A stretch of 64,000 nt of DNA from a virus. Shown piece after piece: positions 5,876-23,617 of this stretch. Positions within the stretch are counted from its first letter, which is position 1; every line of letters starts with the position of its first letter. The stretch covers positions 7,446 through 71,445 of IMG/VR virus record IMGVR_UViG_3300045044_000009; one strand, 5' to 3'. A program made the translations under genes and the position numbers. The notes beneath the pieces are model-generated. The model was not told the DNA's origin, did not search any database, and was given only the letters and a program-made list of their open reading frames with translations.

Positions 5876-6886
5876 TCAGATGCCGTCGCGATAGCCGATC
5901 AGTTCGGGATACACGACCTCGATCATGCCGAGGCGCCCCCAGTAGGTCGTGATATTGTAGAGGCTGCGCCACTCCAACGGCGTCCTTTGCAGCGGCGTCA
6001 TCGGATAGCGGATGTAGTCGTAGTTCTTGGTATACGCGACCATGCGGTTCGCACCCGCAGCACCGCGTCCAGTCAGCCACTTGGCGGGCTGGATCTCCAG
6101 GGTCTTGCCCGCCGTGGCGGCGAGGTTGTTGTCCTGGAGGAACCGCAGGATCGACACGTTGCCCGCGCTGCTGACGATGTTGGACACCAGCAGCGAGAAG
6201 TCCGCAGGCGGCACCAGAACACGGTCTGGCATCACAGCGAAGGCGGAAGTCTGCCATACGCTGGTCAGCAGTTCGTTGATCTGGTTCAGGATGACGCCGG
6301 GGGTCTGCGCGGTGATCGCCGCCGCCCAGGTGCCTCCGGTGACGTTGGTGAGATTGGTCACCAGAGGATGATTGACCAGTCCCGCCGCGCCGACCGTGCT
6401 GTCGCCGATATACACCAACTGGTCGATGTCCATCTGGTGCTTCGTGCGGATGACCTGGAACTTCTGGTCATCGATCGGACGGCCTAGCTGCATCGCCGAC
6501 GCCAGCTCGGGCATGGTGTAGCTGAGTTCCATCCCCCAGAGGAACAACGGCTGCGGTGTCTTGCCGATGTCCAACTGAGCGCCTGTGATCGTGTTGGTGT
6601 CCTTGGCGATCCAGGCGATGCCAGCGGGGTTGATGCCACCAGCGGCAGCGAAGCTGCTGTTGGTGTAGGACGAATATTCATCGCCCACCGTCACGTCTTC
6701 GCGGAGGTCGATGTCGCGGCCCCAGGTCACCGTGAACAGCGGGCCGTGCAATGTCTGGTCGAGGCGTTCGAGTTCCCCGATCAGGAAGGCACCTGTGCTG
6801 TCCTTGGTATACAGGCCGTCGTAGGTGAACATCGGCGACCTGCCCATCGGCGGGCCGCCGTTGTGGCCGATCATGTCCAAAGGCAT
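5876..6886 (-). CDS. Major capsid protein (DUF2184 family)
   Basis: GAFLIGELERLD...TWGRDI...GMELSYTMPEL motifs, 336 aa, follows the scaffold and cement genes. Confidence 0.9.
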   Translation of the reverse strand: MPLDMIGHNGGPPMGRSPMFTYDGLYTKDSTGAFLIGELERLDQTLHGPLFTVTWGRDIDLREDVTVGDEYSSYTNSSFAAAGGINPAGIAWIAKDTNTITGAQLDIGKTPQPLFLWGMELSYTMPELASAMQLGRPIDDQKFQVIRTKHQMDIDQLVYIGDSTVGAAGLVNHPLVTNLTNVTGGTWAAAITAQTPGVILNQINELLTSVWQTSAFAVMPDRVLVPPADFSLLVSNIVSSAGNVSILRFLQDNNLAATAGKTLEIQPAKWLTGRGAAGANRMVAYTKNYDYIRYPMTPLQRTPLEWRSLYNITTYWGRLGMIEVVYPELIGYRDGI

Positions 6887-7917: not shown

Positions 7918-9012
7918 TTATGCGACCCTCCTTGGTCCCATGTTGGTCACGCCCTGCTTGGTCCAGTAATCGTGGTTGGCGGAGTTGATGCCGCGCACGA
8001 TCTCGACCTGCCTGCTGCGATGGGCGCGCAGATCGCCCGCCATGTCACCGAACATCGGTGACGGCACGCTGGCGGCATTGTTCATGGCACGCATCTTCGC
8101 CGAAGCGTCCGCGAAGATGATGCGCATGGCGTCGTAAGACATGCCGCCGACCGACGGTGCATAGTTGCCGAGGATCTCCTTGCCCTTGTCGGTCTTCGCC
8201 AATTCCACCAGAGCGTTGCGCCGCAGGCCGTGCAGACGCTTCTGGGTCTCCGGCCACTTGGCCTCGCCGCCTGCATCCAGCGTCGGAACCTTGATGCCGG
8301 GATGCAGGATTTCGGCCCGAGCGACAGTATCGCGGACGATATTGCCGATCGCCTGGAGGGTGCGGCTCTTGTAGGCAGCATCACCCATCCGGGTCTTCTC
8401 CTGCTTCAAGGCAGGATCGGCCTCGACCAGTTCTGCGGACGATGCGGGCGGCTTGCTCATGGTGAGACCGCTTTCGCCGTTCTCATTGCCCATGTGCATG
8501 AGATCGCCACCGAGGTCGCTGTCCTCAGACTTCTGCTCGAAGTGCTCCTTGACCTCTGCCGGCATCTCGCCGTCTTCGGTCTCGGGTGTCTCCGGCTTGT
8601 CCTCGCCCTCTTTGCCCCAGTTCTTCTTGAAGCCTTCGGGGAGGTCGGCATCGCGGATGCCCATCTTGTCCGCCATGCGGCCAAGCACGGCACCGATGCC
8701 CTTCACGCCGTCTTCCAGCTTCGTCACGCGATCAGCCAGAGCGCTGTCGCCGTTGCCGCCCGCATGCTCGACATGGATGTGGACATTCTGCGGGTGCTTG
8801 CCCTCATCCCCGTCCGGCTCCCTGTGGCCGGTGTCTTCGTCAGGCGGCACCTGGACGGTGGCCTCCTGTTCTTCCGCCTCATCGGCGAGGCGCGCGAATG
8901 TCGCCTTGTCCTTGGCAAAAAACGCGCGGCTCATCCAATCGCGGATGTTCCGCTTACTCACGTCTATGGCCCTCCTTTTCGCCACGCAGCGATCACACAG
9001 ACAGTCGCTCAT
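7918..9012 (-). CDS. Probable capsid scaffolding protein
   Basis: Acidic, charged and helical; AEILxPGIK and INxANxxYW-type C-terminus resembles the scaffold region of DUF2213 proteins; position upstream of cement and capsid genes. Confidence 0.6.
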   Translation of the reverse strand: MSDCLCDRCVAKRRAIDVSKRNIRDWMSRAFFAKDKATFARLADEAEEQEATVQVPPDEDTGHREPDGDEGKHPQNVHIHVEHAGGNGDSALADRVTKLEDGVKGIGAVLGRMADKMGIRDADLPEGFKKNWGKEGEDKPETPETEDGEMPAEVKEHFEQKSEDSDLGGDLMHMGNENGESGLTMSKPPASSAELVEADPALKQEKTRMGDAAYKSRTLQAIGNIVRDTVARAEILHPGIKVPTLDAGGEAKWPETQKRLHGLRRNALVELAKTDKGKEILGNYAPSVGGMSYDAMRIIFADASAKMRAMNNAASVPSPMFGDMAGDLRAHRSRQVEIVRGINSANHDYWTKQGVTNMGPRRVA

Positions 9013-9215
9013 ATCTCGGCATCCTCGGGTGGCGTATCGAGGCCGAGCATTCCGTAGAACTGGTTGTCATCATCGAACGGGACGCCGATCTGCGCAGCTA
9101 TCGCCAGCAGTTCCATCGCCGCCTCCAATTGCTCCTGCGACAGCCCGGAGATAGTCGGGCAATCGCCGAATTTGTCCTTGTAGTCGTGAGCGGCCTGCAA
9201 CGGATCGTCGCTCAT
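9009..9215 (-). CDS. Small acidic protein (possible immunity or partner of the upstream metallopeptidase)
   Basis: 68 aa, D/E-rich, 4-nt overlaps with both neighbours. Confidence 0.5.
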   Translation of the reverse strand: MSDDPLQAAHDYKDKFGDCPTISGLSQEQLEAAMELLAIAAQIGVPFDDDNQFYGMLGLDTPPEDAEI

Positions 9216-10723
9216 GGCTTCCTCGTTTGCTCGTATTTGCCGCTGCCGATGTCGGCGATGATCCGGTCACACTCGGCGCAGAAGTTCGGTGCCAGCGAAT
9301 GCATGACCGCGCGATACACCTTACCGCCAGGCCCGTTGGTCAGATCGACGTAATTGGCGAATGCTTCGGAGCACTTGGTGTGCGGTCGCGCTGCGTAATA
9401 GCTGTCCGCATGCCCCTGGCCGACCACGTTGCCGGTGAGCGACCCGATGAAGTCCTCGAAGTTGGTCCGCTCCTGACCGACCGCAGCGCCACGCGACACG
9501 TTGCGCCAGCCTGCCAGCGATCCGCCAGAGAGCACCGCATTCAAGGACGCGATACGCATCGGTTCGGACTGCGCGTGGATTTCCAAATCATCGTATGACA
9601 GACCGAGTTGCTTGGCGGTCTTCGACAACGCTCCCTCGGCCCCCACTGTCGGGAACATACCGCCCTTGCGATAGCGTTCGATGATGCTCGCAGCGTCCTT
9701 CTTGCGCGCCTCCTCGCCACGGATAAACGACAGCGGCTTCTTGTCCCAGCCAGTCTCCGGCGCGTTGCCGTAGTCCATCGCGTGACCGAATTCATGGCGC
9801 CATGTATTGGCGTTGCCCCGATCGGGTTGGCCCATACTGATCATGTGCTTATTCGCCATGTAGTAGGCCCCGGCCTTTTCCCGGTGGCTGATCTCGGTCA
9901 GCCTCGGCGTGCGCTGCACCGCCGCCATCGTTGTCCCGGACGCATTGCCCCAGGACTGCTCGTGATAGGCCCGCTCGCGCGGGAGCCAGTCCGTCCTGTT
10001 GGCGATGACCTCGGCGATGTTCTTCGGCGCATTCGCGATCGGCGGCGGTGGTTCCAGCTTGGGCGGCGGTTCGATCGCCCTCGGCGGCGTCTTCGGTGGC
10101 TCGGGTTCGCTCGGCGCAGGCGGCAGCTTCGGCGGCGTCCTGCCCGCCTCCTTGTAGATGTGCGCCACCAGCTTGCGGGCGTAGCCCTGGACGCCGCTGT
10201 GCTTCCACCTGGAAGCCATCTGCATGATCTGGACTTCCGCCTCGTGCGGATCTGTGCCTTTGTCCAGAAGCGCTTGAGCGAGCTGCGCCAGCTTCGGTGC
10301 CGCCGTCTTCGACCAGGATGACTTCGGTGGCGGCTCGGGGATCGGTGCCGCGTCCGGTCCCTCCTCCTTCGCCGCACGCGCCTCCCTGCCCGCTGCCGCC
10401 CGCTCCCTGCCCGCTGCCGCTGCCTCGGCGGCTCCCGCACCGCCTTCGCCCTTGCGGACGAACTGACCGCCCTTGCCAGAGCCTTTCATCCCTCGTGGAT
10501 GCTGGTTTTCCAGCCACGAGGCGTCGTCCTCGGTGTCGATGTCATCGTCCTGCGGATAGTCGATGTCCTCGGCGCTGGCGAATTGCTGGTCGAGCATCGC
10601 GCGCAGTTCTTCCTCGTAGGCGTCCAGGTCCTTCTGGAACTCGGCAAGCACCTCGGGTGGCACATCGACCTCTGTGCCCTCCGGGACTTCGATGTCGTCG
10701 GCGTCGGGCGCGTCGCTCACCAC
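9212..10723 (-). CDS. Virion-associated polyvalent-type protein with zincin metallopeptidase domain
   Basis: HEFGHAMD (HExxH, 9782-9796) plus distal SEAFANY; acidic N-terminus, HPR linker and Pro-rich spacer. Confidence 0.7.
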   Translation of the reverse strand: MVSDAPDADDIEVPEGTEVDVPPEVLAEFQKDLDAYEEELRAMLDQQFASAEDIDYPQDDDIDTEDDASWLENQHPRGMKGSGKGGQFVRKGEGGAGAAEAAAAGRERAAAGREARAAKEEGPDAAPIPEPPPKSSWSKTAAPKLAQLAQALLDKGTDPHEAEVQIMQMASRWKHSGVQGYARKLVAHIYKEAGRTPPKLPPAPSEPEPPKTPPRAIEPPPKLEPPPPIANAPKNIAEVIANRTDWLPRERAYHEQSWGNASGTTMAAVQRTPRLTEISHREKAGAYYMANKHMISMGQPDRGNANTWRHEFGHAMDYGNAPETGWDKKPLSFIRGEEARKKDAASIIERYRKGGMFPTVGAEGALSKTAKQLGLSYDDLEIHAQSEPMRIASLNAVLSGGSLAGWRNVSRGAAVGQERTNFEDFIGSLTGNVVGQGHADSYYAARPHTKCSEAFANYVDLTNGPGGKVYRAVMHSLAPNFCAECDRIIADIGSGKYEQTRKP

Positions 10724-10936: not shown

Positions 10937-11239
10937 TCATGGCATCTCGGTCCCGGAAGCGGCGGCGTAGAACGCCATCTCCGCGCCGAGGTTCACGCCA
11001 TAGTCCCGCTGGAACGTCTGCACGCCGGCCTGATGCAGCTTATCGTGGTGGTAGCGGCACAACGGCACCACGTCCTTGTCGGACGGCTTCAATGCGGTCC
11101 CGGCATTCGCGGCACTGCGGACATGATGCGCCTCGGACGGCCACCTGCCGCACTCGGGCACACAGCACGGCTGGTGCCTGATCCAGGCCAGATGGTCAGT
11201 ATTTGAACGAGCCGACGTAGGCTTTCTGCGCTGCCGCAT
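10937..11239 (-). CDS. DUF968 / HNH-like zinc-binding protein
   Basis: WIRHQPCCVPEC...EAHHVR...PLCRYHHDKLH pattern. Confidence 0.7.
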   Translation of the reverse strand: MRQRRKPTSARSNTDHLAWIRHQPCCVPECGRWPSEAHHVRSAANAGTALKPSDKDVVPLCRYHHDKLHQAGVQTFQRDYGVNLGAEMAFYAAASGTEMP

Positions 11240-13256
11240 TGTTATATCTCAGGTGTAGGTGGAAACCGTCATAGCGATAGATGTCGGCGGTCTTGGTGTC
11301 AGGGTTCAGGATGGTGGTCATCGTGATACCTTTGACCTTCGGACCATACTTCTTCTTGTATTCGTCCAGGACCGCCTGCTTGCGATCCATGATGGCTTGC
11401 AGCTTCTTTTGGTTCCACGCAGCCTTCTTCACCGGACTGGCTTTTGCCAGCCACGCGCGCTCGGCCTTCCCCGGCATGCCGATGGTCGCGCGCCACTTCT
11501 GCGCCCCCTTGCTGTTACTCACCAGCCCGGTCTTCGCCTCGATCAGCATGTGGTCGCCGATCAGGTCGACCGGGAAGTTCGTGGTCTTCAGGTTCAACGG
11601 CCTCGCGTCCTTCAGGCCCATGAACTGCTTCAGGTAATTGACGATCACCGCCTCGCCGATTTCGCCGGTCTCCAATTTGGATAGCTGCGTCTTGGTCGGG
11701 ATCGGCTCTCCGGTGAAGGCTCGGGTGCTAGTCTGTTTCAGGCTGCCGACCTGCTTCGCGAGTGCCGCAGATCGCTGCGCCGCCTCGGTGTGCTTGACCG
11801 CCGCCTCCTGGGCCTTGCCCGCCTGCTCGCGCGCCTCGGCCTTGCCCTCGCGGCCTGACGCCTCGCGCTCCTTCTTCGCCTGCACGCCCTCGCCGATGCC
11901 GCCGCCGGAGCCTTTGACGAACTCGCCGCCCTTGCTGGTCCCCTTGGCCCCGCGTGGGTGCTTGGTCTCCTCGAAGGCGTCTTCGGTGGTCGCCCCGCCG
12001 ATGATATGTGCCACGACATGCGTGCGACCGCCCTCATTGCTCTTGCTGGCGATCCGATACTGATGACCGCCTAGCAGGACTTCGTGTTCGTCGCGAGTGC
12101 CGCCCTGCTGCAAGCCCTGGACATACAGACCATGCGTGCCCTTCGGGGCATGCAATTCCAGGAGACCGGGATCGGCATAGTCCATATTGCCGTGCGCGAC
12201 CTCGTGAGACAGGCTGGTCGAGGTCATGCGCCGGTTGTTATAGGTCTCCCCGACCTTCATCCGCCGCAGCCGTGCGCCGAGCGTGCCGTGATAGAGCGTC
12301 GCGTCGACCGGCGTCCGCGCCTCGCCGATCGCTGTCGAGAGGTTCCGCCGCTGCGTGGGCGACAGGTAATTCGCCCCCCTGGTGTAGGTCTCCACGGCCT
12401 CGCGATGCTCCGGCGGCATCCTGGCGATGTGCGCCGCGGCGTGCTCTGCGAACTTGCCCGCTTGGTCCCGAGGATGTTCGCTCTCCTCGAAACCGTCACC
12501 AAAAGGGTGATCGATGTCCTCGTCCCACCAGGGATCGATGTCCGTCAGCCACTCGGGCCGGGAGAACTCGCGTTCGATGTCCAATTCTGCGTTGTGATAG
12601 CCCTCACGGAACCGCTCGACCTCGCCATGCTCGCCGACATGGAATTCGCCCATGCCGGTCTCGACATGGATGCGGTGACCGCTCGTGGTCTTCCCAGGAA
12701 AGTCCAGGTCGCCCGTGTAGACCGTGAAGCCGTCCATGATCGTGCAGCGACCGCCGCAGCGGCCTTCGTCCACCAGCGCCACATGGTTGCAGTGGATGTC
12801 CTTCTGCCGCCCGAGGCCCGGTGCCGTCTGCTCATAGAAGGCGTTGTATCCAACGCTGATCGCCCGCTTGCCGCCCTTCACGGCATCGATCCCACGCTGA
12901 CAGGTGAAGATCATGTCGGCGATCAGCAGATCGTCGTTCAAGTTCGTGCCCCGACGCGGGTTGCTCACATAGCCGATGGCGAGTTCGTGCCAGTTGCCCG
13001 GACCCACCGGCTCGGACGGATGGTCGTCGCAGATCGGTTTGCCGATGAAACTCTGGACGCTGGCAGGCTTGAACACCTCCGAGGCGTCCCGCGCGACATG
13101 CACCCTGCCGCCCGCGTCGCCTTGCAACGGCGGCACCTCGTGTTCAAAATAAATCTGCGTCCCGGTGCGGGCGATCGGCACATCACGGACGACCAGATAG
13201 CCTTCATCCGTCAGTTCCATGTGCGGCGACAGCCGGGAGACCGTGTGCCACTCCAT
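11196..13256 (-). CDS. DUF2213 (putative prohead protease) fused to an ADP-ribosyltransferase-like domain and a PD-(D/E)xK nuclease-like domain
   Basis: Likely start MEWHTV at 13256 after a GGGGG RBS. N-terminal TDEGYL..RDVPIARTG..Y / SVGY / NHVALVDEGRCG is DUF2213. LYHGT, STS and EHE form an ART core. GEIGE..PVDLIGDHMLIEAKTG is a restriction-endonuclease-fold motif. Confidence 0.8.
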   Translation of the reverse strand: MEWHTVSRLSPHMELTDEGYLVVRDVPIARTGTQIYFEHEVPPLQGDAGGRVHVARDASEVFKPASVQSFIGKPICDDHPSEPVGPGNWHELAIGYVSNPRRGTNLNDDLLIADMIFTCQRGIDAVKGGKRAISVGYNAFYEQTAPGLGRQKDIHCNHVALVDEGRCGGRCTIMDGFTVYTGDLDFPGKTTSGHRIHVETGMGEFHVGEHGEVERFREGYHNAELDIEREFSRPEWLTDIDPWWDEDIDHPFGDGFEESEHPRDQAGKFAEHAAAHIARMPPEHREAVETYTRGANYLSPTQRRNLSTAIGEARTPVDATLYHGTLGARLRRMKVGETYNNRRMTSTSLSHEVAHGNMDYADPGLLELHAPKGTHGLYVQGLQQGGTRDEHEVLLGGHQYRIASKSNEGGRTHVVAHIIGGATTEDAFEETKHPRGAKGTSKGGEFVKGSGGGIGEGVQAKKEREASGREGKAEAREQAGKAQEAAVKHTEAAQRSAALAKQVGSLKQTSTRAFTGEPIPTKTQLSKLETGEIGEAVIVNYLKQFMGLKDARPLNLKTTNFPVDLIGDHMLIEAKTGLVSNSKGAQKWRATIGMPGKAERAWLAKASPVKKAAWNQKKLQAIMDRKQAVLDEYKKKYGPKVKGITMTTILNPDTKTADIYRYDGFHLHLRYNNAAAQKAYVGSFKY

Positions 13257-13799
13257 GATGTCCCCCTTCCGGCGTCGTATCAGCGATCTTCTGAGGCGAC
13301 CGCGCACAGCGCGCTACGACCAGCCATGGCCGCCTGTGCGGCGTCCGCCGTTCTGGCCGTGGGTCATCGTCGCCGTGCTATTCGCGGTCGGTCTGGCGTG
13401 GACGATCTTTCGTGCTGTCACTCATGGTCTGTAGCCAGAGTGCCTTCGCCTGAGTGATCGCCGTCTCCCGCAGCACCTCCAGATGTTCGGCTGCTACCTC
13501 CCGGCCACTCGCTAGATACGGTGCCAGCATAGCTGCGTAGAGCGGCGCGGCGAGCAGACTGATATGCGTGGCGAAGTCGTCAGTCATCCTCGGGCACCGG
13601 ATCACCCCGCAAGGCCGCCGCCGCGCACTCATCAGCCGGCGCGAAGCGACCCTGGATATAGGCCAGCCAGCCGCGCAGCCGCTCAATCTCCAGTTTCTGG
13701 GCGTCGATCACCGCCCATGAGCCGGTGCCCGACATAGGTTTTGGCGGGCGCGATCCTCGCCAGAACCTATACTGTCTCGATGCAGCCACTGACCCGCCA

Positions 13800-14213: not shown

Positions 14214-14921
14214 TCAGTGGTGATCGCAGACCCGGCCTCGCAGGCAACCGAGAAGGACTAGACCAACGCCGAGCAGCGCGAGGGACGCAGGCTCGGGCGC
14301 ACTGGTCTGCTGAACCTGGCAATCGACACCGAGCGTGCAAGCAAGGATGCGCGGCTGCTTCAGATCATTCCAGCCGAATTGCTGGGTGCCATTCTGCACG
14401 CTCTCGAAAATCTTCACGTCGGTGATCGCCTCGTTGGTGCCGCTCACCGCATCAACGCGGAAGAAGTTGGAACCCTGCGTCAACGTGTCAGTGAAGATGT
14501 TGCCGAAATTGTCCTCGGCAACGATGCCGACGATGCCTTCGCCAAAGTCCAGGTTGAAGATCATGGTGGTGGCCGCGACAGGCGCGACCATCCTGATCTC
14601 CAGTCCGGTCAACTGCGCACCGTTAGCGCCGCCCTGGCTGAATGGATTGCAATTCGCCGTGCAGATGATATCCGCCTGCCCCGCGCCGGTAGTGCCGATT
14701 TCCTCTGGACCGTAGGTCGAGCCGTTGCGGTTCAGGTTGAGGAACTGGACAGTGTTGGCACCCTTGTTGGTGTCGCCGCTGATGGTTCCCTGGTTCGAGG
14801 TGTGCTGCTCGAATTGCACGACATCGCCGGTCGATCCACCGGCGGCGGTGATCACAAGCGTAGCATTAGCGGCAGCAGGCAGCATGGTCGCGAAGGCACT
14901 GGCGAGTAGCAATCTGCGCAT
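14214..14921 (-). CDS. PEP-CTERM sorting-domain protein
   Basis: N-terminal signal peptide (MRRLLLASAFATMLPAAANA) and C-terminal APEPASLALLGVGLVLLGCLRGR. Confidence 0.85.
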   Translation of the reverse strand: MRRLLLASAFATMLPAAANATLVITAAGGSTGDVVQFEQHTSNQGTISGDTNKGANTVQFLNLNRNGSTYGPEEIGTTGAGQADIICTANCNPFSQGGANGAQLTGLEIRMVAPVAATTMIFNLDFGEGIVGIVAEDNFGNIFTDTLTQGSNFFRVDAVSGTNEAITDVKIFESVQNGTQQFGWNDLKQPRILACTLGVDCQVQQTSAPEPASLALLGVGLVLLGCLRGRVCDHH

Positions 14922-14937
14922 GGAACGTTCCCCCTGT

Positions 14938-16386
14938 TCACGGAGTGATCGTAAGCACCCGCACCGTCGCCGGCAAGGCGATCTGCAACGCGTCGGTGGC
15001 GCCGTGGTCCGTCTGCGCCCCAGAGAGCAGATCGGTCTCGGTGACGGTCATCCGATACGGCAGGGATACGCTCACCGTCTCCGCCTGTCCGCCCGCCTCC
15101 GGCTCGCTGTGCCAGAGGAACAGGGAGAACCTGCCGACGGCGCTCTCCGCCAGCAGCCAGTCGCAGCGCTCAGAACCTCCGGAGACCTGCACGTCCAGGC
15201 TGTCAGGCTCGAATGTCCGCCGCTCATCGTCCTTATCGGGGCAGGCGGTGCAGAGGTTGCGGATCGCCTGCGCAGCCGGACGTGGATTGCTGGCGTTCAC
15301 CGGGAACAGGCCGCAGATATACACCGTGCCGTAATCGAACAGCGCATACCACCACAGGCCGTCCACGCCGCATTTCGCCGCACGCAGCAACGCCAGCAGG
15401 GTGTAATACGCGTCCCGATCGCCGCTCCATGCCTGATTGACCGGAACCTCCGTCTTGCGTTCGCCGACCGCCGACTGACCCCGCTTCGGCCCCACGCGCT
15501 GCGCCTGTGCCGACATCGCTTGCGCCGATGGCTGATGGCCGTCCGAATTATACAGCGTCGGATGGAACTCGGTCAGCGCGATCACGTGCTGGCCATACGC
15601 CGTCCAGAGGCCGCCGACATATTCGCTGAGGCTGGTGCCGTCGCCCGTGAGATCGGGACAATGCGGCGGATAATAGTGGCCGTTGCCGATCGCCATCGCC
15701 TCGTTGACCTCGGCCATGCGGTCCCCGAAATAGCCGGTGATCCAGCCCTCCGGATGCGGCATCCCGGCGACCACGCTCGGCCCCATGGTCGGTGTGGCGT
15801 CCTTGTAGACCGCATGCTGGATCGCCATCGTCTGCTCGACCGGCACCATGCCTGAGCCGAAATCCGTGTTCGGCTCGTTCAGCCCCTCGAACCAATCGGC
15901 GAAGTCCGCCATCGACAGCATCGACGGCACATCATCCACGTTGCCGTTCGCCGCCACACAGAGGGTGATCCGCGTGTCCGGCAACGCCGCCCTGATCTGC
16001 GCCAGCCAGGGCTGCTGGAAGCTCTCGTATCCACTGTAGTGATACTCGCGCAGCCGCAGACTGTGCCCGCTGTCGTTGGTCATCCATTGCAGCGCAGCGA
16101 TCACCTGCTCCGGTCGATAATCGGCAGGCCAACTGCCCCAGCGATTATTTTCGTCCATCGAGGAGAACGTGTTGACGCCGAACGTCTCCACCACATCGGC
16201 GATGCGCATGGCCTTCGTGCCGGTCCCGGACGATGGCGGTCGGTCTGGCTCCGGTGGTTGCGGAGCGGTGCTGCCGTCCCCCTCCAACACCGCGACGCGG
16301 CCTTCCAGATCGTCCACACGGACGACCAGGGCATCGAACTCCTCGCGGGTCGGCACATCGACCTGCGGCGTCGGGCTGCGTGCCAT
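14938..16386 (-). CDS. Putative clan GH-A glycoside hydrolase with short N-terminal coiled coil
   Basis: EGLNEPN acid/base motif (15872-15880), later LTEFH candidate nucleophile, TIM-barrel-sized core and beta-rich C-terminus; N-terminal heptads REEFDALVVRVDDLEGRVAVLEG. Confidence 0.65.
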   Translation of the reverse strand: MARSPTPQVDVPTREEFDALVVRVDDLEGRVAVLEGDGSTAPQPPEPDRPPSSGTGTKAMRIADVVETFGVNTFSSMDENNRWGSWPADYRPEQVIAALQWMTNDSGHSLRLREYHYSGYESFQQPWLAQIRAALPDTRITLCVAANGNVDDVPSMLSMADFADWFEGLNEPNTDFGSGMVPVEQTMAIQHAVYKDATPTMGPSVVAGMPHPEGWITGYFGDRMAEVNEAMAIGNGHYYPPHCPDLTGDGTSLSEYVGGLWTAYGQHVIALTEFHPTLYNSDGHQPSAQAMSAQAQRVGPKRGQSAVGERKTEVPVNQAWSGDRDAYYTLLALLRAAKCGVDGLWWYALFDYGTVYICGLFPVNASNPRPAAQAIRNLCTACPDKDDERRTFEPDSLDVQVSGGSERCDWLLAESAVGRFSLFLWHSEPEAGGQAETVSVSLPYRMTVTETDLLSGAQTDHGATDALQIALPATVRVLTITP

Positions 16387-16390
16387 GGGT

Positions 16391-17269
16391 TCACTCCGTC
16401 ACGATGGGAAGCGCCACACACCGGCAGTTCCAAATCTGGCCGGGATGGCTGTGGTGGTCGGGCGGATCGGACAGCGGCGGATCATCCCAGCGCTGCACCG
16501 TGTTATTCAGCTTGCGATGGCTCTCCCGGACCCGCGCATCGCCTGCCGTCTTCCAGATATAGCTGTCCACGCCGATCGATCGCGCCCGCGCCTCGGTCAG
16601 CACGCTCGCCGTCCTGGCGGTCTCGGTGCGGGCAATCAGCGTGGCGCGGCTGCGCACCCATTCCTCCGTCGCCTTCGGATGCGCTTGCGCGAGCATGGCT
16701 TCGATTTCGGCCTGCTGCTCGGGATAGCGCGAAGCGTGGTTCAGCGCCTCGATGGTCCGTTCGTGGATCCTCTGTGCGGCTTCCAGCGGCAGGCTGGTGA
16801 TGAGTTGCACCTGATACGCCATCAGGGCCTCGACCATGCCACCGACATACGATCCGGTGCTGCGCAGTTCGGCCCGCAGCGCCGCCGACATGCCGCGCGT
16901 ATGCCGTTCCCAGGCGGTGCGGTTCCTGCGATCGACCTCAGCGATCATCCGTGCGGTCGCCGCTCTGGCCCACGGGGCGATGGCGGCGGAATACTGGCGC
17001 ATCGCATGGTCGATGCGGGCGATCTGACCGGGCTGGAACGGCTCTCCCGGTGGCGGTGCATGCGCCTCCACGATATGGGCGACGTGCTGTGCCAGACGAC
17101 GGAGCGCGGCACCGAAAGACCGCTGGGCGGCATGCTGACGGGAAAACCGCTCCTCGGCGCGCGCCTCTGCCTGCTCCCGCCGCTGGCGCTCGCGTCGCTC
17201 CCGTGGTGTCTCAGGACGCCGGGCCACTCTGCGGCACCTGATCCTTGTCATAGACCGAGACGCCGCCAT
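16391..17269 (-). CDS. Minor head / head morphogenesis protein (MuF, SPP1 gp7-like), short form
   Basis: RATLIARTET...YIWKTAGDARVRESH...HPGQIWNCRC motifs; no C-terminal extension. Confidence 0.9.
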   Translation of the reverse strand: MAASRSMTRIRCRRVARRPETPRERRERQRREQAEARAEERFSRQHAAQRSFGAALRRLAQHVAHIVEAHAPPPGEPFQPGQIARIDHAMRQYSAAIAPWARAATARMIAEVDRRNRTAWERHTRGMSAALRAELRSTGSYVGGMVEALMAYQVQLITSLPLEAAQRIHERTIEALNHASRYPEQQAEIEAMLAQAHPKATEEWVRSRATLIARTETARTASVLTEARARSIGVDSYIWKTAGDARVRESHRKLNNTVQRWDDPPLSDPPDHHSHPGQIWNCRCVALPIVTE

Positions 17270-17441
17270 CCAACGCCTGGATCGCCTTGCCCAGCCGCAT
17301 CGAAGCGTCTTCCAGGTGCCGATAAGCCAGCATGACGTTGGCGACGGCCTCGCCGTTCCATTCGTTCTGCACCAGAGGCCGCAGGCGATCAGCGGTGGAT
17401 TTGATTTCGCGCCGCAGCGCCTCGCAGTCCGCGACCTTCAT
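17211..17441 (-). CDS. Small helical-hairpin protein, possibly Acb2/Tad1-like
   Basis: 76 aa, two predicted helices; LAYRHLEDASMRLGKAI resembles the AxTxLEEAxMWxxxAI helix of Acb2/Tad1-type proteins. Confidence 0.4.
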   Translation of the reverse strand: MKVADCEALRREIKSTADRLRPLVQNEWNGEAVANVMLAYRHLEDASMRLGKAIQALDGGVSVYDKDQVPQSGPAS

Positions 17442-18994
17442 TCCTTGCCTCCTACGCTACGCAATGTCGGCTGCGGGGGCGTCCCGCCGCTCGGAGGCCG
17501 CATACCACCCGGCTGACCGCCGCCACCACCACCGAACGGTGACGGTTTGCCTTGGCCCTGTGCCCCAAGCATCCCAGGCATCCCCTGCTGCTGCGCCTCC
17601 GGGTCCCATGGTGCCGGGGCTTCCTCGCTGTCCTTGATGTCCTTGTCCGTGATGTTGGTGAACCGCCCGGTCATGATGGAATTCTGTTTGAGTTCTTTCA
17701 GGGCGATCGTCGTGGTGATGATCCCGGCGTCGTGCAGGAGTTTCAACGTATCGGCGTCGCGCTGGGCGATCTCGGCCTTGGCGTTCTCGTCCGGCTCATC
17801 GATCGATCGGAAGCCGAAGTTCCAGGTATCCGGCGGCTGCCTGCCGAGTTCGCTCTGCCACATGACCTTGAATATCCGGGTCAGCGGTCGGCGCACGCGT
17901 GCCTCCTGCGTCGCCTTGATCATGCTCTCGTAAATCCGCCAGTCGCTATCGCCCGTGGCATTCATCCCCGCAGGCGATTGTCCGAACAGGCGGGTGAGCG
18001 GAATGCCGAGTGCGCCAGCGATCTGCTGGCCGATCATCTGCAAGGTGTCGGGGACGCCTGCGAAGGAATACTGATGCGTCTCGAACTCGTCTTCCTTGTC
18101 GATGACCGTCAGGCCCTCATTGGTTTGCAGATACCGCATCAACTCCATGGTGCGATGGAAGCGCTGCTCCAATTCACCGCCGGCACCAATTAGCTTGCGG
18201 TAGCCATCTACCTTGTAGGTTCGGAGATAAGCCTTATAGAGAAGCTGGCTGGCGCCCATGGTGCCGCTGTCGAAGGCCAGCAATCGGTCGTAGAGCCGTT
18301 CGATGACGGACATGCCCCAGCCGTTTTCTGCGAGACGCTGACGGAATGGCAGGGCGATGCCGTCCATTCTGAGGATACGGCTGTAGTGGATGCGCTGCTT
18401 CGGCATGAACGGGGCCGACTGCACCACGTCATAAAAGACCGGAAGGCCATAGTCGGGTCCAAATTCCTGGATCAGGTGGCTATAGGTCGGCTGCACCATC
18501 CAACGATCCAAGACGATGAAGCCCTTCAAAGCTCCTTGTGGCACGCGTTCGGGAATGAGCGGCGTCGCCATGTCCTGGCCATCGATCGCCAACACCATCA
18601 GCGCGCCGCCATAAAGCCGGGACCATTTGATGGTCTCATTCAGACTTTGCCACAGATACAGGTTATTCATCGCCGTCTGTATCTGTTCAATCTGGTCGGG
18701 CGGCGTCTCCGAGTTCATCTGCACACCAGACCGCGTCATGTCGTCCGCCACCACATCGACCGCAGCGCCGACCACCCATGAGCCGCGATATGCCCATTCG
18801 AGCAACTGCTGAAGGCGGCTGATCGGGAAATAATTCTGCGTGGTCTCGGTCAGCAGATTGCCAGCGCCCAATCCGATGCGGGCGGCGAAATTCACCACAT
18901 TGTCCCCGACATAGATCAGCCGCTCGCCCTCGGGGTTCGCTGCGGTGCCAGCGCGCATAGTGATACGAGGCTTCGGTGGCACTTGGTCACTCAT
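17438..18994 (-). CDS. Portal protein (DUF1073 family)
   Basis: YRGSWVVGAAVDVVADDMTR...WSRLYGGA...GIPLTRLFGQSPAGMNATGDSD motifs. Confidence 0.9.
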   Translation of the reverse strand: MSDQVPPKPRITMRAGTAANPEGERLIYVGDNVVNFAARIGLGAGNLLTETTQNYFPISRLQQLLEWAYRGSWVVGAAVDVVADDMTRSGVQMNSETPPDQIEQIQTAMNNLYLWQSLNETIKWSRLYGGALMVLAIDGQDMATPLIPERVPQGALKGFIVLDRWMVQPTYSHLIQEFGPDYGLPVFYDVVQSAPFMPKQRIHYSRILRMDGIALPFRQRLAENGWGMSVIERLYDRLLAFDSGTMGASQLLYKAYLRTYKVDGYRKLIGAGGELEQRFHRTMELMRYLQTNEGLTVIDKEDEFETHQYSFAGVPDTLQMIGQQIAGALGIPLTRLFGQSPAGMNATGDSDWRIYESMIKATQEARVRRPLTRIFKVMWQSELGRQPPDTWNFGFRSIDEPDENAKAEIAQRDADTLKLLHDAGIITTTIALKELKQNSIMTGRFTNITDKDIKDSEEAPAPWDPEAQQQGMPGMLGAQGQGKPSPFGGGGGGQPGGMRPPSGGTPPQPTLRSVGGKE

Positions 18995-19652: not shown

Positions 19653-21068
19653 TCACAGCCGCAGCCATTCCGCCAGCCTTCCGTCCGCCACGAGATTGAA
19701 CGCACGTGCCGTCGCGTCGCAATCGTCGTCGTGCGGCAATTCCGGGAAGCCTTCGAGCATCTGGAACCACCGCTCGTTCCAATCGCCCCGCAGCACCAGC
19801 ACGTTGCCAGCCTCACACTGCGCTGAGAACGGGCTGAAGCGGGTGATCTTGTCGCCGGTCTCCGGGCTGAATTCCACGCTATAGCCGGCGAGCATACGCA
19901 CCATGGCACTGACCTGCGCCTTGCCTGCCTGACCGGGGTCCTGCGGGATGCCGACCTTGCACTGATAGCCGTCGTGCGACGCCATGTTCATCACCCGCCG
20001 CTCCACGTCGGCAGGAGTGCCACGGAAGGATGTGGCGTCCATGACAAGATACCGACCGTCGCCGAGCCGCCCCATCTTGACGCTGGTGGTGTAGTCTGGA
20101 TCGTTCTCGGCGGTCTCTGGCGTGGCAGCCAAGTCCCAGCCTCGCACCACGTCGAGAACCTTCGGCGCGATGTCCACCACCTGGACCCAGGCACGGTTGA
20201 AATACAGACCCGCCGAGGGACGGATCTTCCAATTGCCGTTGAGCAGTCGCTCCCGCTCGACCGCCGGCAGCATCATCAGGTTCCCCAGATATTGGGGATC
20301 GTTGCGCATCAGCGCCGGATTGTCTGATAGCTTGGCCGCGATAAACGTGGCGCTCTTGATCGTCTCCGCCGATCGACCGGTGGCTGCCATCGCCTGTCGC
20401 TTGGTGTCGAACCAGATCAACTGATCATCCGGCCCGCGCACGAAATACCGCTTGGTGCCGCTGCGCTCGGGGATCGGATAGCCGGTGACCGGGTCCCACC
20501 ACCACTGGATGAATTCCGCCACCCAACTGCCTGCGTCGGCGTTGCACGAGGCTCTGATGTATGGCCGGACGCCGGTCATGCCACGGTTTCTCGATAGCAG
20601 GTAGAAGAACTGATACCGGGTGAACGTGGTCAATTCATCGAAGCAGATGCATGGCACCTGCGAGCCGTGCCAGTCCAGCACGGTGTGCTCGTATTCCAGG
20701 TGCGACAGCTTCACCGCTCCGCCATGCGGCCATTTCCAGGACAGCGTGTGCGAGATCGGATAGGCACCTGCGTAGGGGAACAGCTTCATGCTCTCGGACC
20801 ACAGGCCACCGGGGCGGCGTATGTCGGTGGTGTTGCGGCGGAACATGACGCTATCGAAGCCGGGATACCGCTTGTCGCCTGGATAGCGCATGGCTTCCAG
20901 CATGAGTGCCCAGGACTTGCCTGAGCCGGCTGCGCCGCCGAACAGGGCGATGTCTGCGTTGCTGCTCAGGAACCGGCGCTGCGGTCCTGGCTGCGGGATG
21001 ATGCGCCGTTCGCCCTCAGGATCAGGACCGAAGTCGCGATCCATGTCCCAGGTGAAGCTGTCAGGCAT
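19653..21068 (-). CDS. terL: Terminase large subunit
   Basis: Walker A GGAAGSGKS, Walker B ICFDELT, nuclease-domain WDLA and HDDDCDA. Confidence 0.95.
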   Translation of the reverse strand: MPDSFTWDMDRDFGPDPEGERRIIPQPGPQRRFLSSNADIALFGGAAGSGKSWALMLEAMRYPGDKRYPGFDSVMFRRNTTDIRRPGGLWSESMKLFPYAGAYPISHTLSWKWPHGGAVKLSHLEYEHTVLDWHGSQVPCICFDELTTFTRYQFFYLLSRNRGMTGVRPYIRASCNADAGSWVAEFIQWWWDPVTGYPIPERSGTKRYFVRGPDDQLIWFDTKRQAMAATGRSAETIKSATFIAAKLSDNPALMRNDPQYLGNLMMLPAVERERLLNGNWKIRPSAGLYFNRAWVQVVDIAPKVLDVVRGWDLAATPETAENDPDYTTSVKMGRLGDGRYLVMDATSFRGTPADVERRVMNMASHDGYQCKVGIPQDPGQAGKAQVSAMVRMLAGYSVEFSPETGDKITRFSPFSAQCEAGNVLVLRGDWNERWFQMLEGFPELPHDDDCDATARAFNLVADGRLAEWLRL

Positions 21069-22211: not shown

Positions 22212-22553
22212 ATGAGTTCCCGTATCAAGCGACCGCCGCTGTTCATGCCGCTGCGCAGCCGTTGGTTCGATGCGTTCGCCTGGGGCGTGCGGACGGAAGA
22301 ATGGCGCAGGCTCGGTCCTCGGCACAACCTGGAGACCTGCGTGCCGGGACGGGGCGTCATCCTGTCGCGTGGCTATGGCGGCCCAAGGCTGCGCGCCAGG
22401 ATCGCCTCGGTGCGTGTGGCACAGTCGGACGACAACGAAGGCGCCCGTGCCGTCTACGGTCCTGCGGTGGCGTGCGTGGTGCTGGCCCTCTCCGACATCC
22501 GACCGATCAAGCGCCGAGCGACCTCGCGGTCTTCCATCGCCGGGCCGCAATAG
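22212..22553 (+). CDS. ASCH/PUA-like domain protein
   Basis: LFMPLRSRWFDAFAWGVRTEEWRR...VILSRGYG matches the ASCH LxLxxxWFDxIxxGxKTxExR signature; convergent with and overlapping the ATPase-GNAT gene. Confidence 0.6.
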   Translation: MSSRIKRPPLFMPLRSRWFDAFAWGVRTEEWRRLGPRHNLETCVPGRGVILSRGYGGPRLRARIASVRVAQSDDNEGARAVYGPAVACVVLALSDIRPIKRRATSRSSIAGPQ

Positions 22554-23617
22554 GCAAAGTTGGCGTTGGGCCGTCCACCAAAGCCTCGGCGGGGAACACG
22601 GGGGTTGATGGACGGCTTGAGGTTCGGCGTCGAGATACCTGGTTTCTTGTGCAGCCGCCAGTTGGGACTGCGGTCGAAGGCTCGGGTGAACGACGGATGC
22701 GCCGTCGGCATGTGATAGCGGTAGCCGATCGCCTTGAACGCCGAGGCGATGGTGTCGTTGAGCACGAAGGCCAGACCGAGGCCCTGGAAGTCTGGCAGGG
22801 TCACGAGGCGCGACACGCCGAAGATGTCGTCGGCTTTCACCGCAGGCCGCCACATCACGCCGAGGAAGGCAGCCGGCTCTCCGTTGACGCTGAGCACGAA
22901 GCACCGGGCATTCACATGCAGGTTGGCGGTCAGATAGTGAAAGCGAGAGAAGGGTATCCAGGCAGAATGGGCAACGCGCTGGATCGTGCAATGGAGCGCT
23001 GGTCGCCGTAAAACCGACCTCCATCGGAAGGTCATGGTCGCCGGCTCAAGGATCCAGTCCGGCTGAAGCCATTCTTCCAGGTCGAAGTGACAGGTGGCTG
23101 CGACGAAGCGGTGGCTCGGGTCCTGCCGGATGTATTTCGCCACCGCGTGTGCGCCGATCTGTGCCACCTGACGGTCCACGACGGAGGTGAATTCGTCGCA
23201 CAGGACCAGATCGCCGCCTTCCAGCAGCCGCCGAGCGAGGTCTACACGGAACCGCTCCCCGTTGCTGAGCACGCCATACGGACGCAGCCATGCCGGTATG
23301 GTGTTGAAGCCGACAGCTTGGCAGATACGTGCCAGCGCTTCAATCGTGATCGAGGGGTCGAAGTCATCGATCACCGACGGCGCTTGCCATGCGAAGTCCA
23401 GAGGCTCGCCGAAGGTCTGGCGCAGGATGGTGCTCTTGCCTGATCCAGACGGTCCGACGATCAGACCGATCTGCCAGGGTTTCAGATCGATCGGCAGTTC
23501 GCCGTGCCATTCCAGGTGTGCGCGGTCGGCAGCCGGCACATCGAACATCGATGACACCTGCTGGGCGCGGATGGACGTGGAGATCGGGGTGTCCACGGCG
23601 ATGTCGATACGTGGCAT
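22454..23617 (-). CDS. ABC-class ATPase fused to GNAT acetyltransferase
   Basis: GPSGSGKST, LSNGE, DEFTS ABC motifs; C-terminal VSRLVTLPDFQGLGLA acetyl-CoA-binding motif; no transmembrane partner nearby. Confidence 0.85.
   Translation of the reverse strand: MPRIDIAVDTPISTSIRAQQVSSMFDVPAADRAHLEWHGELPIDLKPWQIGLIVGPSGSGKSTILRQTFGEPLDFAWQAPSVIDDFDPSITIEALARICQAVGFNTIPAWLRPYGVLSNGERFRVDLARRLLEGGDLVLCDEFTSVVDRQVAQIGAHAVAKYIRQDPSHRFVAATCHFDLEEWLQPDWILEPATMTFRWRSVLRRPALHCTIQRVAHSAWIPFSRFHYLTANLHVNARCFVLSVNGEPAAFLGVMWRPAVKADDIFGVSRLVTLPDFQGLGLAFVLNDTIASAFKAIGYRYHMPTAHPSFTRAFDRSPNWRLHKKPGISTPNLKPSINPRVPRRGFGGRPNANFAYCGPAMEDREVARRLIGRMSERASTTHATAGP

Follow-up and report, generated by a model that had tools for sequence, protein, structure and literature searches.

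Fusions of effector domains to the MuF and portal proteins of phage heads are known, and phage T4 carries the ADP-ribosyltransferase (ART) Alt inside its head and injects it (Iyer et al., 2017, PMC5512222). Assemblin-like peptidases have been noted in polyvalent proteins (PMC5512222), and Nudix domains have been described in fusion with MuF, with the portal and with a capsid-processing serine peptidase (Iyer et al., 2022, PMC9503650). That enzymes are fused to head-internal proteins for injection is an established principle, and fusions to capsid peptidases have been described. Injected phage proteins act before phage genes are expressed, and are therefore a main route past bacterial defences and to takeover of the host. 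The second point of reference is the DUF2213 family, whose canonical members consist of a protease-fold domain followed by a capsid-binding scaffold part. The DUF2213 protein of Pa193, gp24, is present in virions, where a helix-turn-helix made of residues 286-326 binds the capsid interior, and its N-terminal part was not seen in the structure (PMC11456595). Here we describe a gene, P0001, that joins these two themes. It lies in a 64,000-nucleotide stretch of viral DNA (the window, in which all positions are given), part of a 75,005-bp IMG/VR virus record with a CheckV completeness of 100%. An uninterrupted open reading frame (ORF) at 11196-13256 on the minus strand, with an ATG start just downstream of an AAGGGGG ribosome-binding site, encodes 686 residues in which a DUF2213 domain is followed by an Alt/VIP2-type ART and a PD-(D/E)xK nuclease-fold domain, with a short linker ahead of each of the two cargo domains (Table 1).

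With peptidase, ART and nuclease-fold domains in one head-module ORF, the gene falls under the definition of a polyvalent protein (Iyer et al., 2017). We hold the identities of all its domains with high confidence, and we consider it probable, taking the explanation as a whole, that the gene encodes a polyprotein from the head module of an uncultured soil phage, a relative of PB1, Pa193 and E217. The original prediction, made from the sequence without database searches, had set the joining of effectors to the protease apart from the known extensions of MuF and polyvalent proteins; such joining is not without precedent, given the Nudix-peptidase fusion (PMC9503650) and the assemblin-like peptidases of polyvalent proteins (PMC5512222). 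What is new is an N-terminal DUF2213 domain that acts as carrier while its scaffold half is encoded apart, and the lineage-wide use of this gene as a cargo locus, together with an uncatalogued PD-(D/E)xK end-cap, a linker element and a His variant of the ART.

The fusion and its domains

Contigs from four soil-metagenome runs, belonging to four studies, carry the identical sequence with no variants or indels, although one of these runs is possibly the source sample. Both domain junctions are bridged by independent contigs, of which one (X3 record 8) spans 12352-12711 and another (X2 record 2) spans 11672-12255. The fusion is therefore real DNA and no assembly chimera; an assembly artefact, a possibility named beforehand in the original prediction, is ruled out by the bridging contigs and by the identity across runs. 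As an observation of its own, the identity extends over 11100-13400 of the window, and the recurrence of one sequence in four soil-metagenome runs suggests a soil phage population that is widespread or abundant.

The N-terminal part is recognised by Pfam PF09979 (DUF2213, renamed Pa193_gp24 in newer releases) over residues 15-175, with an E-value of 2.9e-43 (148.2 bits against a cut-off of 22; profile positions 3-166 of 167), and this region is also matched by several PHROG families named 'head maturation protease'. A profile built from 35 DUF2213 domains matches one solved entry, Pa193 gp24 (9b40_G, E 8.8e-13), which was deposited as 'scaffolding protein'. An AlphaFold (AF2) model of residues 1-185 has a predicted local distance difference test score (pLDDT) of 86.9. 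Since Foldseek against the PDB gave weak E-values for this model and for that of the C-terminal domain, Z-scores were taken from an exhaustive VIA-align search, in which the best match is T4 gp21 (5jbl_A; Z 11.4, root-mean-square deviation 2.7 over 130 residues), followed by the varicella-zoster virus protease (1vzv; Z 9.3), with unrelated rows at Z 6.2 or below. The Foldseek rows, weak as their E-values are, consist almost entirely of herpesvirus assemblins and gp21, with probabilities up to 0.99. His79, Ser134 and His158 are invariant in the 35 DUF2213 sequences, all sampled fused forms included, which is the pattern that an assemblin-type His/Ser/His site would give. The domain is thus predicted to have the capsid-protease fold of T4 gp21 and the herpes assemblins, in keeping with its original designation as a prohead protease. 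Peptidase_S78, ClpP and S49 have no match anywhere in the complete phage genome, so that the DUF2213 domain is its only recognisable prohead-protease candidate.

The half that canonical DUF2213 proteins carry after the protease is not lost from the genome, where it forms a gene of its own. Positions 1-178 of phrog_1961 (417 positions) match P0001 and positions 182-416 match a 364-residue ORF, the C-terminus of which aligns by BLAST with the C-termini of canonical DUF2213 proteins of 436-446 residues (P0089, E 2e-10; P0062, E 8e-7). An orthologue of this ORF in the relative L001 is 58% identical, and the same split between protease and scaffold half is found in the relatives L001, L069 and L070. 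In P0001 itself, residues 180-267 aligned with canonical DUF2213 proteins show no real similarity past the protease domain, and the spacer of residues 176-255 has no Pfam match.

The middle domain is an ART, as had been proposed. Pfam ADPrib_exo_Tox matches residues 325-408 (29.5-32.9 bits against a curated cut-off of 23.4), phrog_3895 also matches, and an Atlas model of residues 268-420 superposes on ADPrib_exo_Tox clusters with TM scores of 0.72-0.82, several of these clusters being fused to MuF or portals. When the solved Listeria ART Lmo0066 (8za7) is aligned, its LYRGT lies over the LYHGT of P0001: in place of the Arg found in Lmo0066 and in five other ARTs linked to DUF2213, P0001 has His323, and it accordingly lacks the catalytic Arg of R-S-E ARTs. 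The STS and ExE motifs are conserved in all aligned ARTs of DUF2213 fusions, P0001 included. The mixture of H-Y-E and R-S-E clade signatures that had been read into these motifs is better described as an ordinary Alt/VIP2 (R-S-E) member with an Arg-to-His change, the other DUF2213-linked ARTs having kept the Arg. His at this position is common only to P0001 and its one close homologue, P0007 (57-63% identity); a word-index search for relatives of the ART segment returned P0007 alone, and conservation of the His is thus known from two sequences. In mouse ART4, a protein considered acatalytic, the R-to-H replacement also occurs, alongside an altered first Glu (PMC2576468). Because His323 replaces the catalytic Arg, the ART activity of the protein is uncertain. 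By the same token, this His-for-Arg ART is a natural test of whether an R-S-E active site tolerates the change.

The C-terminal domain escapes profile searches, since Pfam scans (E up to 10) and PHROG scans of residues 500-686 gave no match. Its AF2 model (pLDDT 93.9) is nevertheless placed among nucleases by VIA-align, where 16 of the 17 top rows are PD-(D/E)xK enzymes with Z between 8.5 and 5.4, the remaining row being 3fov, of unknown function. NhoI (Z 8.5), I-Ssp6803I (8.1), Hjc (7.7/7.5), Hje (7.2) and PvuII (7.0) are among them; by the tool's own caveat such values are middling, and the active-site motif was required in addition. Glu535, Asp564 and Lys575 are invariant in a 56-sequence alignment and Glu573 is kept in at least 90%, and these positions agree with a helix (model residues 28-47) and two strands (66-68 and 71-79) of the model, as expected for a signature carried on helix 1 and strands 2 and 3. 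The top Foldseek rows are weak and mostly the same PD-(D/E)xK enzymes, and the Atlas neighbours are Tox-REase-2/5/7, UPF0102/YraN, NERD and Hjc. Fold prediction and the invariant E, D and ExK residues together indicate a PD-(D/E)xK nuclease fold with the alpha-beta-beta-beta-alpha-beta core and an E...D...ExK signature, so that the restriction-endonuclease-like (REase) end originally assigned to the protein stands; nuclease activity is predicted.

This domain is widespread in environmental sequence. An exhaustive HMMER search of 1.84 billion cluster representatives found it in 458 at E of 0.001 or below (274 below 1e-30), and it is present at 64 IMG/VR loci. A tblastn search of 50,697 GenBank phage records found no match, and a pattern scan of 185,579 species genomes found one locus, in a metagenome-assembled genome of the Vicinamibacterales, a lower bound since exact matches were needed. 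The end-cap seems to be uncatalogued, with no cultured-phage example. In 153 of the 165 proteins that were examined, no more than 10 residues separate the end of the domain from the C-terminus. Its carriers among 57 long representatives are Portal_Mu (18), MuF (8), three further portal families (5 each) and DUF2213 (2), and the accompanying cargo in the same 57 comprises Acb1, ART-PolyVal, NUDIX, 2H phosphoesterases and InPase. Two metagenomic polyvalent proteins, P0240 (1941 residues) and P0220 (1095 residues), have the domain in an internal and not a terminal position; P0240 has five of the linkers described below and P0220 four, spaced roughly 170-670 residues apart. On another IMG/VR contig, a gene ending in the domain (L030:2420-5524) is immediately followed by a separate DUF2213 gene, an arrangement that could be intermediate between the portal-borne and protease-borne forms.

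Linkers, relatives and the head module

The two cargo domains of P0001 are each preceded by one copy of a linker with the pattern [FW]-x-E-x-x-H-P-R-x(3-9)-G-x-F, and a Gly-rich stretch comes after it. The 75-kb genome has only three copies, whatever the frame, all in two head-module proteins. The 260 collected proteins contain 91 strict instances, which lie at domain boundaries and number up to five in one protein, and looser Q-P-R...G-x-W variants are also found upstream of the nuclease-fold domain. No description of this HPR linker was found in the passages of Iyer et al. (2017, PMC5512222; 2022, PMC9503650) that were searched. A complex prediction of the protease domain with linker 2 (residues 415-475) scored 0.00, which is uninformative either way, and the DNA of the linker-coding segments is no more similar than the shared peptide predicts, and so is silent on cassette recombination, for or against.

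The exact architecture of P0001 forms a singleton cluster (one member, on one contig), and its origin can be read from its relatives. The closest of these (P0002-P0005) are 68-73% identical over residues 1-263 and have the layout DUF2213-linker-nuclease. Since they lack residues 264-427, comparison of the sequences indicates that the ART is a cassette that entered an older protease-nuclease fusion and now lies between two copies of the linker. Parallel architectures are present on independent contigs. Among the relatives, the protease carries the nuclease only in L001, topoisomerase IB and an ART in L069, and NUDIX and an ART in L070. The phages of this group, with contigs of about 46-75 kb, share a Phage_portal_3 portal, a short MuF, a cement protein, a PF09950 capsid protein and E217_gp27. 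The MuF of the present genome is, as had been stated, short and toxin-free: its MuF domain reaches to residue 286 of 292, and there is no MuF-toxin fusion. Both here and in the relatives the cargo is on the protease gene, and it is this gene and not MuF that serves as the variable cargo slot in the phage lineage.

The coordinates of the features are collected in Table 1, and every motif position that had been given for the protein beforehand proved exact.

Table 1. Features of P0001 and of the head module, with positions in the 64,000-nucleotide window
Feature	Position	Strand	Residues	Basis or remarks
Target gene P0001	11196-13256	-	686 residues	Protease, linker, ART, linker, nuclease-fold domain; stop codon 11196-11198
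DUF2213 / Pa193_gp24 N-domain	12732-13214	-	15-175	Predicted assemblin/gp21-like protease fold
Invariant residues of DUF2213 domain	13020-13022; 12855-12857; 12783-12785	-	His79; Ser134; His158	
Spacer	12492-12731	-	176-255	Common to closest relatives P0002-P0005 (BLAST blocks q1-263)
Linker 1	12450-12491	-	256-269	F-E-E-S-E-HPR-DQA-G-K-F
Alt/VIP2-type ART	11976-12449	-	270-427	Pfam ADPrib_exo_Tox, phrog_3895, alignment, Atlas structure
ART motif residues	12288-12290; 12213-12221; 12081-12089	-	His323; S346-T347-S348; E390-H391-E392	
LYHGT motif	12282-12296	-	321-325	
TSTS motif	12213-12224	-	345-348	
EHE motif	12081-12089	-	390-392	
Linker 2	11898-11975	-	428-453	F-E-E-T-K-HPR-GAKGTSKG-G-E-F and Gly-rich tail
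Charged spacer	11742-11897	-	454-505	Lys/Glu/Ala-rich, read from sequence; no family match above threshold
C-terminal PD-(D/E)xK nuclease-fold domain	11199-11741	-	506-686	AF2 model, VIA-align, invariant E...D...ExK
Signature residues of nuclease-fold domain	11652-11654; 11565-11567; 11538-11540; 11532-11534	-	Glu535; Asp564; Glu573; Lys575	
GEIGE motif	11652-11666	-		
PVDL motif	11562-11573	-		
IEAK motif	11532-11543	-		
Third linker copy	10460-10516	-		In 503-residue neighbour, past acidic N-terminus
503-residue protein	9212-10723	-	503 residues	Acidic N-terminus, HPR linker, Pro-rich spacer, HEFGH zincin motif
Scaffold / capsid-binding half of canonical DUF2213 proteins as own gene	7918-9012	-	364 residues	phrog_1961, BLAST
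Large terminase	19653-21068	-		
Portal (Phage_portal_3)	17438-18994	-		Pfam; without C-terminal cargo
Short MuF	16391-17269	-	292 residues	Pfam Phage_Mu_F at residues 166-286; without effector extension
Major capsid protein	5876-6886	-		phrog_264, E 5e-73; downstream end of head module

The head module runs, on the minus strand, from the large terminase through the portal, the short MuF, a 482-residue ORF, a PEP-CTERM protein and two small ORFs to P0001, and continues with a DUF968/HNH-like gene, ORFs of 503, 68, 364 and 161 residues, a cement/decoration-type protein and the major capsid protein. The 503-residue protein, the second bearer of an HPR linker, has no Pfam, PHROG or homologue match and is absent from the relatives L001, L069 and L070; with its HEFGH motif it is probably a further, independently targeted cargo. 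Between MuF and the protease gene, at 14214-16386, lie the PEP-CTERM protein (Pfam 21.2 bits, just over the cut-off) and the 482-residue ORF, which has no family match. As the relatives have only small ORFs there, this segment looks like a moron insertion in the head module. The DUF968/HNH-like gene (10937-11239) has a start that overlaps the final 44 nucleotides of P0001, and a short DUF968-like ORF occupies the same place in L001. About 1.4 kb past the large terminase, on the same strand, a gene at 22454-23617 encodes a 387-residue protein (phrog_11143) with ABC-ATPase-like and acetyltransferase-like parts.

Delivery of the cargo and competing explanations

The arrangement of the protein suggests how the cargo could be delivered. 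The protease domain would carry the whole polypeptide into the procapsid, and maturation proteolysis, possibly by self-digestion of the protease with cuts at or near the linkers, would free the cargo domains inside the head. The prohead proteases of HK97 and T4 digest themselves. At infection the cargo would exit with the DNA, after which the ART could modify host proteins and the nuclease could act on host or invading DNA, or on DNA structures. Given the precedents of T4 Alt and of the MuF and portal fusions (PMC5512222, PMC9503650), we put this scenario of packaging, processing and injection at slightly better than even; the position of the gene in the head module, between portal and MuF on one side and scaffold half, cement protein and major capsid protein on the other, counts in its favour.

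Several points weigh against it. We infer the presence of the protein in virions, its cleavage and its injection, and a protease fusion would have to enter the procapsid without the scaffold half. Between carriers of very different kinds the nuclease domain is still 45-70% identical, which is unusually conservative for an effector in an arms race, and the ART, with His at the Arg position, may be inactive. The linker is not tied to DUF2213, a match to which is found in just one of ten other viral records with the C-terminal domain, and in some proteins it lies within 20 residues of the N-terminus, a placement as compatible with docking as with cleavage. The idea that the HPR linker is a specific cleavage site of DUF2213 proteases is weakened by the same one-in-ten count, the records being 42-80% complete.

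Two of the competing explanations concern single domains. The ART may be a pseudo-enzyme or have altered chemistry, serving as an NAD-binding module, acting only as an NAD glycohydrolase or using another acceptor, a possibility that we rate a little short of even and that is compatible with the rest of the explanation favoured here. The LYRG of Lmo0066 over LYHG in P0001, the Arg kept by all the other DUF2213-linked ARTs and by the portal-borne ART of Pseudomonas phage Orisa03, and the comparison with mouse ART4 all point that way, whereas the intact STS and ExE motifs, the well-predicted fold, the recurrence of the His in the only close homologue and a gene that stays open and unchanged in several soil samples speak for a working enzyme. 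Moreover, His is the NAD-contacting residue of the other ART clade. The nuclease-fold domain, for its part, might be a structure-specific nuclease for the phage's own DNA and not an anti-host toxin, held at the portal vertex or in the head interior and employed in debranching, in junction resolution or in processing the ends of the genome when it is packaged or enters the cell. Among the closest folds are the Holliday-junction resolvases Hjc and Hje (Z 7.2-7.7), portals are the commonest carriers (33 of the 57 long representatives), and the conservation across carriers is easier to reconcile with an unchanging DNA structure as substrate than with a target in an arms race; T4 endonuclease VII, too, has been reported to associate with the T4 portal. 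However, a position behind long flexible linkers at the C-termini of portals, MuF proteins and proteases points to the capsid interior and not to the DNA entry point, the domain travels with typical counter-defence cargo (Acb1, 2H phosphoesterases, NUDIX, ARTs), and its Atlas feature neighbours are Tox-REase toxin families. We give the own-DNA role about one chance in four.

The remaining two concern the gene as a whole. If the fusion were a co-expression device only, the cargo would act late in the producing cell and stay unpackaged, which would agree with the lack of the scaffold/capsid-binding half from the polypeptide, and packaging of the cargo is a step that we infer. Portals and MuF, both obligate components of the virion interior, nonetheless carry the same cargo domains, the location in the head module is conserved in the relatives, and T4 Alt and the MuF fusions offer precedents (PMC5512222); a mere device for co-expression is thus improbable. 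An assembly chimera or a decaying pseudogene, for which the singleton status of the architecture might be cited, is scarcely credible in the face of the identical sequence in four runs from four studies, the bridged junctions and the lack of variants or indels. The catalytic signatures are moreover intact save for the Arg of the ART, G+C content at third codon positions is 0.82, typical for the genes of this phage genome, and parallel architectures lie on independent contigs.

A more far-reaching extension of the head-delivery explanation may be entertained, if only tentatively and as rather unlikely. The pattern [FW]xExx(H/Q)PR...Gx[FW]...GGG could be a general, undescribed capsid-cargo signal, for processing or docking, by which exchangeable effector cassettes are attached to any head-internal protein across phages with differing portals and proteases. 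In that case the PD-(D/E)xK end-cap would be a new, widely shared ejected nuclease, and the prohead protease would here be a self-destructing delivery vehicle that arose after loss of the scaffold half. Were the linker a processing or docking signal, packaged effectors could be picked out of metagenomes by a simple sequence rule, and proteins could be loaded into phage heads with its help. In any event, nuclease-fold end-cap and short linker, the latter marking cargo boundaries, are two apparently uncatalogued reusable parts.

Comparison with described systems

The C-terminal domain shares its core fold and the E...D...ExK metal-site signature with the Hjc and Hje resolvases, small type II restriction endonucleases and Tox-REase domains. 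Unlike these, it has no Pfam match (E up to 10) and contains a long inserted helical hairpin (model residues 98-138), and its family has conserved motifs of its own and a fixed C-terminal site on phage head proteins.

T4 Alt is processed by the assemblin-like prohead protease gp21. Alt and the ART of P0001 are of the same Alt/VIP2 type, and Alt, carried in the head, enters the host together with the DNA (PMC5512222). Alt stands alone as a protein, is targeted to the capsid by a peptide of its own and has a canonical R-S-E site, whereas the ART described here is joined to the protease and has His for Arg.

The protease-scaffold layout of canonical DUF2213 proteins resembles that of herpesvirus pUL26. 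P0001 and Pa193 gp24 have homologous N-terminal domains, as the profile match to 9b40_G indicates, but in the clade of P0001 the scaffold half is a separate gene and enzymatic cargo stands in its place.

A counterpart in a cultured phage is gp4 of Pseudomonas phage Orisa03 (PP179327.1), in which a head protein is likewise joined by a linker, F-D-E-N-K-HPR...G-K-F, to an Alt/VIP2-type ART. Its carrier is the portal, its ART keeps the Arg (LYRG) and it has no PD-(D/E)xK domain. The gene (L068:1938-4049) is annotated as hypothetical and encodes portal, HPR linker and a canonical R-S-E ART (LYRG, STS, EKE); the Orisa03 genome also carries a DUF2213 gene. Processing at the linker and packaging are testable in this cultured system.

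Also akin are the polyvalent effectors, and those fused to head proteins, that Iyer et al. (2017, PMC5512222; 2022, PMC9503650) describe. There, disparate enzymes likewise occupy one head-module polypeptide on a virion-internal protein, with packaging and injection as their predicted fate; ART and NUDIX domains are typical of the cargo. P0001 differs from them in its carrier, an N-terminal DUF2213 domain of predicted assemblin-like protease fold, and the prohead protease thereby takes its place beside MuF and the portal as a third carrier of head cargo.

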